From IMG/VR virus record IMGVR_UViG_2875697941_000001: a stretch of 64,000 nucleotides of DNA. One strand, 5' to 3'. The position numbers and the translations under genes were made by a program. Shown piece after piece: positions 22,623 to 25,511 of the stretch. Every line of letters starts with the position of its first letter. Position 1 is the stretch's first letter. Below the pieces are notes generated by a model that saw only the letters and a list, made by a program, of their open reading frames with translations, was not told where the DNA came from and searched no databases. This DNA comes from a virus. Lineage: Duplodnaviria; Heunggongvirae; Uroviricota; Caudoviricetes.

Positions 22623-24742
22623 AAGAGCTGTGCTATGGATCTGTTTGCAGTGGAATTGAAGCCGCGAGTATTGCCTGGGAACCGTTGGGTATGCGTCCGG
22701 CGTGGTTTGCTGAAATCGAGCCTTTTCCATCTGCCGTTCTTGCGCACCGCTGGCCCCATGTCGCCAACCTTGGCGACATGACAAAACTTGCCAAAAAAGT
22801 CCTGGCTGGGGAAATCGAATCCCCTGATGTGCTCGTCGGGGGTACGCCTTGTCAGGCATTCAGTATCGCGGGCTTACGTGGTGGGCTTGATGATGAACGC
22901 GGCGCGCTAACTTTGAAGTATGTGGAGCTTGCAAATGCAATTGACGACAAACGGTCTGAGTCCTTCCTCAAACCGACAGTTATCGTCTGGGAAAATGTCC
23001 CAGGAGTCCTGTCATCGGCAGATAACGCCTTCGGATGTTTCCTTGCCGGATTGGCTGGAGAAGATGCGCCATTTGAACCAGGTGATCGACCTGAATCAGG
23101 AAAAAGTAACGCGTTCTGGCGGTGGGATGGCAAAACCGGTTGCCATGCTCCAAAGTGGCCGCAGTGTGGTTGTATTTATGGACCGCAGCGAAAGGTGGCC
23201 TGGAGAATCCTTGATGCCCAATACTTCGGAGTGGCACAACGACGCCGACGCGTGTTTGTTGTCGCAAGTGCTCGAACAGACCTCGATCCCGCAACGGTAC
23301 TTTTTGAGTTCGAAGGCGTGCGCCGGAATATTGCGCCGAGCCGAAAAAAGAAGGAAATCGCTTCCGCCATTATTGCAAATGGCGCTGCAATCAGTGGCGA
23401 AAGCCTAAATCCATGCCTACACGCTGACATGCCACCCAGTATGAAATCGACGAAAGCCGTAAACGCTTTCAGGATGGCAGCATTTGGGGAATATATTGAC
23501 GATGAAACCGCATCGACAGTAAAGGCAAGAGATTTTAAAGATGCCACTGACCTTGCCGTTTTTAGCAGCACAGGAGCAGGTTTTTGGTCAGAAGGGCATG
23601 GTACATTGCGGGCACGTGAGCAAGAAAGCCATGAGCATCTTGTTACATTGGCTTTTCCTGAGCGTATGAGCGGTACACAACATGCTGCAACTAAGAATAC
23701 TTCACCATCTCTAATGGCTAAAAATCCAACAGCTGTTTGCTATGAAGTAAGAAACGCAGAAGTAGCTGTCCGCCGTCTTACCCCTGTCGAATGTGAAAGG
23801 CTGCAAGGTTTTCCTGATGGGCATACGTTGATCCCGACGGAAAAGCGTAAAAAAGTTAATTCAGATGAACTGGCATATCTTCGCAATCACTATCCAGATT
23901 TAAGCGAAGAAGAGGCCGCGATGCTTGCAGCTGACGGACCGCGTTACAAAGCGATCGGCAATAGTATGGCAATACCAGTAATGCGCTGGATTGGCGATCG
24001 GATTACTAAGGCCGTATGTCGGCAGAAAGAAGGAAGTGAAACAAAAGAGCGAAAAGTTAAACCAGCGGCAGAATTCGAACGGTCCATATTCAAATGGGCT
24101 GGTGGAAAATTTGGTGTTCAGGAACAAATCTTTCGCTATTTGCCAGAAGGGAAGCGCCTGATCGAACCTTTTGTCGGTGGCGGAGCTGTCTTCACGAATG
24201 CCGGATACCAGGAAAATCTGCTAAATGATGTGAATGCTGACCTGATTAACTTTTACAAGACTCTGCAACGCGAGGCGCATTCACTTATCACACTGGCGCA
24301 TCGTTTCTTCCAGGACTACAACACACAGGAAGGATACCTGGCAGTACGGAATGCGTTTAACAAACAAGTCTATGATGATTTACATCGCGCAGCGGCGTTT
24401 TTGTTCCTGAACCGACATTGTTTTAACGGATTGACGCGTTACAACCAGGCCGGTGAGTTCAATGTCGGTTACGGGAAGTATAAAACTCCGTATTTCCCAT
24501 TACAGGAGATGGAAGCCTTCCTCGGTGCGGAAGGGCGGTCTGAGTTTGTATGCGGTGATTTTGCAGCGGTGATTGAAGCTGCCGGAGAAGGAGATGTCAT
24601 CTTTTGCGATCCGCCGTATGAACCGCTTCCAAATACAGAGGGATTCACGAACTATTCCGGTCATGACTTTAAGTTTGAAGAGCAAAAACGCCTGGTGCTG
24701 AGAGATCCCCTCATAATTTCCCCAAAACGTAACCATGTGTGA
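22619..24742 (+). CDS. dmt: fused C5-cytosine / N6-adenine DNA methyltransferase, 3'-truncated
   Basis: N-terminal Dcm-like motifs ([14 protein letters not shown]); C-terminal Dam-like motifs (FKWAGGK, DPPY); only ~40 aa follow DPPY where a Dam domain needs ~95. Confidence 0.75.
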
Positions 24743-24935
24743 ATAGATTTTGAGTAAGCAGGGTTGCAGCCACGAGTGAGTCTTCCCTTGTTATTGTGTA
24801 GCCAGAATGCCGCAAAACTTCCATGCCTAAGCGAACTGTTGAGAGTCTCGGTGTGAGATGCTTTACGTCTTCCAAGCCCCCTTCCTTGCCGTAAATGGAA
24901 AGATACATCTAATTATAGAATTTATATGTTTTACC

Positions 24936-25511
24936 CTACGGCAGTGCTGGCCATTCAATATCCTGTGCAGTTGACGTATCAACACGGTTCAGCAACACCC
25001 GATACTTTTTCCAGGCTTCCAGCAATGAGGTTTCTTCCTCCGTTGCGATTTCCAGATCTACAGCATCCTGAAGTGGCGCAATATGCTCACTGGCTACCTG
25101 CATCAGGCTGTTTTTTGTTTCTTCCGCCTCTCGGATCCGGAACAGTTTTTCTGCTTCTGCATCTTTCACCCAGGCTGTGCCGTTCCACTTCTGAAACTCC
25201 CCTTCCGGCGATAACCAGGTAACATTTTCCGGTAACGGACCGAGTTCAGAAATAAATAACGCGTCCCCTGACGCTACGTCATAAACCGTTTTACCCCGAT
25301 GGTCTTCAACGAGATGCCACGATGCCTTATCACTGTTGAAAACAGCCACAAAGCCAGCAGGAATATCTGGTGGTGCAATATCGGTACTGTTTGCTGGCAG
25401 ACCTGTATGAGGCGGAATATATGCGTCACCTTCACCAATAAATTCATTAGTTCCGGCCAGCAGATTATAAATTTTTATGGTCCGTGGTTGTTCACTCATT
25501 CTGAATGCCAT
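24936..25511 (-). CDS. tfa: tail fibre assembly protein Tfa
   Basis: 191 aa from [20 protein letters not shown]; near-identical to recalled lambda Tfa. Confidence 0.85.

Follow-up and report, generated by a model that had tools for sequence, protein, structure and literature searches.

In the 64,000-nucleotide stretch of DNA analysed here (the window), sequence of a P1-like phage-plasmid passes within 200 bp into sequence of a lambdoid prophage. This adjacency of P1-like and lambdoid DNA is not a biological feature, and comparison of the sequence with related records indicates that it is, with high probability, an artefact of assembly. The only real event at the locus is an ordinary IS10 insertion truncating dmt. 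The initial annotation was correct that the junction matters for the whole window: positions 1-24845 (P1-like phage-plasmid) and 24846-64000 (chromosomal lambdoid prophage) belong to different replicons, and inferences that rest on their linkage would be wrong, for instance that the two form a hybrid phage, are regulated together or represent a prophage lying inside a plasmid. The biological interest of the locus is low, and its importance is a practical one for the interpretation of the remaining window.

Anatomy of the junction

The sequences were compared with those of Escherichia coli MB49, a relative of the source isolate and not the same isolate, which is the host of pYLMB49b (NZ_CP073955.1), a closed circular P1-like phage-plasmid of 94,013 bp. 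One abrupt P1/lambda junction had been described initially, and the sequence facts behind that description hold; however, megablast against phages and plasmids divides the region 24000-25500 into three segments rather than two, so that there are two junctions, J1 and J2, with a piece of IS10 between them. The P1 identity (99.9%) ends at 24697, equivalent to P1 coordinate 68490, the following 24698-24845 are 148 bp from one end of IS10/ISVsa5, and from 24846 onward the sequence is lambdoid, with 100% identity to phage PhiR42_1. The features of the locus are as follows.

22619-24742, plus strand: truncated dmt open reading frame; residues 1-693 are native P1 Dmt and residues 694-707 are IS10-encoded
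Dmt residues 1-693: N-terminal C5-MTase domain and C-terminal Dam/D12 domain, with the DPPY motif at residues 664-667
24689-24697: 9-bp target-site duplication, present as the single copy CGCCTGGTG; the second copy lies outside the window
24698-24845, minus strand: IS10/ISVsa5 (IS4 family) fragment, 100% identical to the pYLMB49b IS and to other ISVsa5 copies
24845-24846: J2, probable contig-to-contig join; the same IS10 break has three different continuations in three records
24846-25521, minus strand: tfa piece of 676 bp, with the CDS of the tail-fibre assembly gene tfa at 24936-25511; matches MB49 chromosome 3355320-3355995 and PhiR42_1 at 100% identity

In base-level alignment, J1 (24697/24698) reads ...CGCCTGGTG / CTGAGAGATCCCCTCATAATTT... 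and is a clean IS terminus, and J2 (24845/24846) reads ...CTGTTGAGAG(T) / CTCGGTGTGAG.... The left side of J2 is an internal IS10 base (base 148 of the IS), beyond which the IS10 sequence would read ACGTTTCGATTTC..., and its right side starts 7-8 bp past the stop codon of the pin serine invertase gene of intact prophages. The T at 24846 is compatible with both partners, which therefore have 1 bp of sequence in common and no gap between them.

The dmt open reading frame encodes 707 aa of a homologue of P1 Dmt. Its stop codon lies 40 codons downstream of DPPY, and the tfa CDS ends 194 bp past that stop codon, as the initial annotation had estimated (~40 aa and ~190 bp). Its statement that the Dam domain is incomplete was borne out as well, since the match to Pfam PF02086 (Dam/D12 class) spans profile positions 1-210 of 253 in the window Dmt versus 1-242 in the intact P1 Dmt. 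The intact P1 gene (NC_005856.1 66412-68676, 754 aa) has the same combination of C5-MTase and Dam domains as the window copy and is 99.9% identical to it in nucleotides as far as P1 68490, but retains the last 61 residues, which are missing from the window copy through the IS insertion.

An IS10 insertion truncates dmt

J1 is a genuine IS10/ISVsa5 insertion in dmt, because the closed pYLMB49b carries the identical insertion with a full IS and a 9-bp duplication. There, the element is 1329 bp long, encodes a transposase of 402 aa and has CGCCTGGTG on both flanks; the terminal repeat CTGAGAGATCCCCTCATAATTT, located at 24698 in the window, is matched at the opposite terminus by the inverted repeat CTGATGAATCCCCTAATGATTT. 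The P1 sequence restarts at P1 coordinate 68482 past the IS, with 68482-68490 duplicated, and continues into the dmt 3′ remnant and then the remaining P1 backbone. Of the transposase gene, no more than the final 45 codons lie in the window (24711-24845, with the stop codon at 24711-24713), whereas the intact gene for a DDE transposase of ~402 aa is complete within the element of pYLMB49b; we attribute the absence of the rest of the gene from the window to a contig end and not to biology.

Therefore, dmt was not truncated by the join to lambda-like DNA, as had been supposed at first, but was cut by the IS, since the IS10 segment intervenes before the lambdoid sequence starts. The insertion is not new: RefSeq already holds a P1-like phage-plasmid with dmt::IS10, pYLMB49b, on which the 707-aa truncated Dmt is annotated as WP_250188323.1. 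By established P1 biology, a dam+ host would be expected to tolerate the loss of the Dam domain of Dmt.

The IS10 end next to dmt (24698-24710) contains a GATC (CTGAGAGATCC). IS10 activity is Dam-sensitive, and given this sensitivity it is a curious coincidence that IS10 inserted in, and truncated, a gene for a Dam-type GATC methyltransferase.

The same break in three sister records

An exact-protein lookup placed the 707-aa Dmt on four records only, pYLMB49b, CP035320.1, CP035321.1 and CP035322.1, the last three being consecutive accessions of 5-Mb 'chromosome' records. CP035322.1 (5.05 Mb; assembly GCA_004116695.1) matches the window at 12619-34742 with zero mismatches, and by this identity the window is part of that GenBank record. 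CP035322.1 was not found in the RefSeq complete-genome collection, and searching the full-text literature with the three accessions and the assembly ids turned up no papers.

The three sister records have the same P1 sequence, base for base, across the 12.2 kb that were compared, up to one and the same IS10-internal base, after which it has three unrelated continuations: a piece of a DUF932/IS1 island, a chromosomal GTPase-gene region and the lambdoid tfa. The P1 block is also placed differently in the three records, at 59-82 kb in reverse, at 2.11 Mb and at 104-127 kb, and its orientations differ too. This pattern therefore points to a contig that ended in a multi-copy repeat and was pasted to the next contig, and a biological origin is disfavoured because it would need three independent breaks at one internal IS base.

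CP035320.1 and CP035321.1 look like patchworks too. Isolated N bases occur in both within a few hundred bp past their own IS10 joins, at position 12996 of one extracted sister stretch and at 12377-12494 of the other, and one sister record changes to an IS1 fragment ~770 bp past its IS10 join. All three records look like pseudo-molecules, and their careful use is advised.

Native arrangement in a closed relative

The window matches MB49 with 100% identity along 24.8 kb of plasmid sequence and 30.6 kb of prophage sequence, and the two parts fall on separate replicons there. The correspondence is piecewise.

Window 1-24846: pYLMB49b 56959-32114, 100%, no gaps
Window 24846-25521: MB49 chromosome, tfa, 676 bp
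Window 25518-31425: MB49 chromosome, 211 bp skipped
Window 31420-32101: MB49 chromosome, 63 bp skipped
Window 32098-33386: MB49 chromosome, 140 bp repeated
Window 33387-33407: no MB49 match, 21 N
Window 33408-64000: MB49 chromosome, 100%, 112 bp repeated across the N run

On the plasmid side, pYLMB49b has the same dmt insertion position and the same truncated Dmt as window 1-24846, but differs from the window in that its IS is complete, with the dmt 3′ remnant, tRNAs, tciA and ban after it and no lambdoid DNA attached. On the chromosomal side, the MB49 prophage (NZ_CP073953.1, ~3.355-3.396 Mb) and PhiR42_1 are 99.9-100% identical, piecewise, to 24846-64000, and the 44000-64000 part of the window is 100% identical to the MB49 chromosome; shared with the window are tfa, the side tail fibre gene, lom, J, the head genes and the early region. 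Unlike in the window, tfa in MB49 is followed downstream by pin, ydfK, ynaM, a methyltransferase gene, ompT, envY and nfrA::ISVsa5, the tail-fibre and J genes are intact, and there are no missing or duplicated segments and no N run. The integrase gene intD of the MB49 prophage adjoins tRNA-Arg (argU), ~0.8 kb past the equivalent of the window end; at this DLP12/argU position, it is a lambdoid prophage of the ordinary kind. The MB49 sequence examined holds at least three ISVsa5 copies (two on the plasmid, one in nfrA), and because the IS is multi-copy a short-read contig stops inside it.

Further joints in the lambdoid part

Base-level views relative to MB49 revealed four further joints in the 9 kb to the right of J2.

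25518-25521 (joint 2): 211 bp of the closed relative missing; tfa and the side tail fibre gene fused
31420-31425 (joint 3), within the J gene (tail tip): lacks 63 bp that MB49 has
32098-32101 (joint 4), within the J gene (tail tip): tandem duplication of 140 bp of chromosomal sequence
33387-33407 (joint 5), in the lambdoid tail-gene region: 21 N marking a scaffold gap; the same 112 bp stand on both sides

In the 1108-aa open reading frame at 24936-28262 (minus strand), tfa (191 aa) and the side tail fibre gene are falsely fused, owing to the 211 bp missing at joint 2; in MB49, tfa (191 aa) and the side tail fibre gene (986 aa) are separate. The 140-bp tandem at joint 4 has the appearance of overlapping contig ends that were concatenated, and the 21-N run is also present in the public copy of the record (20769-20789 of the extracted stretch). 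No gene products are on record for the stretch of the source record that holds the two joints at 31420-31425 and 32098-32101. The artificial deletions and duplications of the tail-fibre/J region (25.5-33.4 kb), together with the fake fused reading frame, should not be read as biology.

Occurrence of the join in other sequences

The join at J2 appears to be confined to the source record. For 24550-25050, no record covering >=80% was found among 5426 complete E. coli genomes, and for 24000-25500, megablast found none covering >=80% in PLSDB or the phage collection. A 33-mer spanning J2 had 0 exact matches in IMG/VR and JGI metagenome contigs, while the native pin-tfa 33-mer, used as a positive control, was present in 117 IMG/VR contigs; moreover, pin lay beside tfa in 10 of the 10 sampled contigs encoding the exact Tfa, all of them from other genomes. 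The joins of the sister records were likewise absent from the independent records searched. The 65-aa open reading frame that crosses J2 (24711-24908, minus strand) had no match on record in the lookup.

Origin of the join

Based on these comparisons, we propose that CP035322.1 is a pseudo-molecule in which draft contigs were ordered and then pasted together. The contig of the P1-like phage-plasmid would pass through dmt into the genuine IS10 and end 148 bp inside it, where a short-read assembler would have been unable to cross an IS that is multi-copy in the lineage, and this contig end would then have been butted, with no gap marker, against the 676-bp contig carrying the prophage tfa. In the cell, to judge from the closed identical relative, the P1-like element would be a free circular plasmid of ~94 kb, with dmt::IS10 comprising the full 1329-bp IS, the 9-bp duplication and the dmt 3′ remnant beyond, and the lambdoid prophage would be chromosomal, flanked by tRNA-Arg (argU, with intD) on one side and by the pin-ydfK-ompT region on the other. 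The chimeric join, which the initial annotation had offered as one of two readings, is thus strongly supported for 24845/24846 by the sister records and by the closed MB49. The locus resembles contig-concatenation artefacts in other 'complete' records, in that the break falls in a multi-copy IS, the neighbours vary, and duplicated overlaps, missing repeat pieces, an N run and stray Ns are found nearby; it differs from them in that most of its joins have no gap marker and so resemble real junctions.

Two observations do not sit easily with this model. The 148-bp overhang and the variable overlaps (-211, -63, +140 and +112) contrast with the fixed k-mer overlap expected of a simple de Bruijn assembler. 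Additionally, a 10-mer, GCAAAACTTC, is common to IS10 (24813-24822) and the native pin 3′ end (12288-12297 of the extracted prophage stretch) in exact register, 24-33 bp to the left of J2, with an empirical chance of ~1.4e-4. At the one testable sister join no comparable in-register match was found, the longest run being 3 bp, and a merging tool seeded on the 10-mer, considered as the source of an in-register join, was set aside since the sister join shows nothing similar. The in-register GCAAAACTTC is probably due to chance, or else is the trace of a merging tool.

The same 10-mer, being statistically unusual, would speak for an illegitimate recombination or deletion that joined base 148 of the plasmid IS10 to the prophage beside tfa and so fused the phage-plasmid to the chromosome, and the gap-free J2 with 1 bp of shared sequence has the form expected of such an event. 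We nevertheless regard it as very unlikely: two sister records have the identical IS10 break, joined there to unrelated partners, the neighbouring sequence is demonstrably a patchwork, N run included, and in the closed relative the two partners are separate replicons. Transposase-mediated events, by established IS10 biology, use the IS termini and not an internal base. That the source isolate truly carries a P1-like phage-plasmid fused to its chromosome beside lambdoid tail-fibre genes, through an internal IS10 break, is accordingly held to be highly improbable; if true, it would represent an integrated phage-plasmid next to a prophage.

Recombination by a site-specific enzyme would be a still less probable source of the join. 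The initial annotation's other reading, the integration of a lambdoid phage within dmt of a P1-family phage-plasmid, takes its appeal from the lambda-like DNA lying within 200 bp of P1-like DNA, but we give it a vanishingly small probability. As the annotation itself had remarked, no att site is present at the junction: there is neither an integrase nor an att core, and a search for repeats >=13 bp linking 24600-24960 to the remaining window returned one chance 13-mer only. The junction lies at the tail-fibre end, near the usual place of pin, and not at an att end; the break is at an internal IS base; intD stands beside tRNA-Arg just past the window end in the identical MB49 prophage; and the element that interrupts dmt is not phage DNA but IS10, flanked by its own 9-bp duplication. 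A crossover by the DNA invertase Pin or Cin, between a site near pin and a quasi-site inside IS10, might be suggested by the distance of 7-8 bp between J2 and the pin stop codon, by the P1 cixL crossover lying 4 bp past the cin stop codon, and by a weak, by-eye likeness of the J2 surroundings to invertase half-sites. However, the sister joins at the same IS10 base have partners that are not invertase sites, and the lambdoid identity begins at 24846 and not at the predicted central dinucleotide, whereas a contig end accounts for all three joins and for the other joints of the window; the invertase reading is likewise given almost no credence. The pasting together of unrelated contigs at an assembly break within IS10 is therefore the explanation that we favour.

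Other features of the two parts

The P1-like part differs from reference P1 at 2219-3594, on the sim/immunity side, and at 16767-19018, between par and repA; in pYLMB49b the par-repA stretch is annotated with a GIY-YIG nuclease and a different replication initiator. Because both stretches are identical to pYLMB49b, this is, as far as that identity can tell, natural P1-family variation. In the prophage part, ~50,400-53,600 of the window (MB49 chromosome 3379452-3382630) falls between the lysis and Q regions, and there the identical MB49 sequence has a porin gene and iss, which encodes a serum-survival lipoprotein; both genes are typical DLP12-like cargo.
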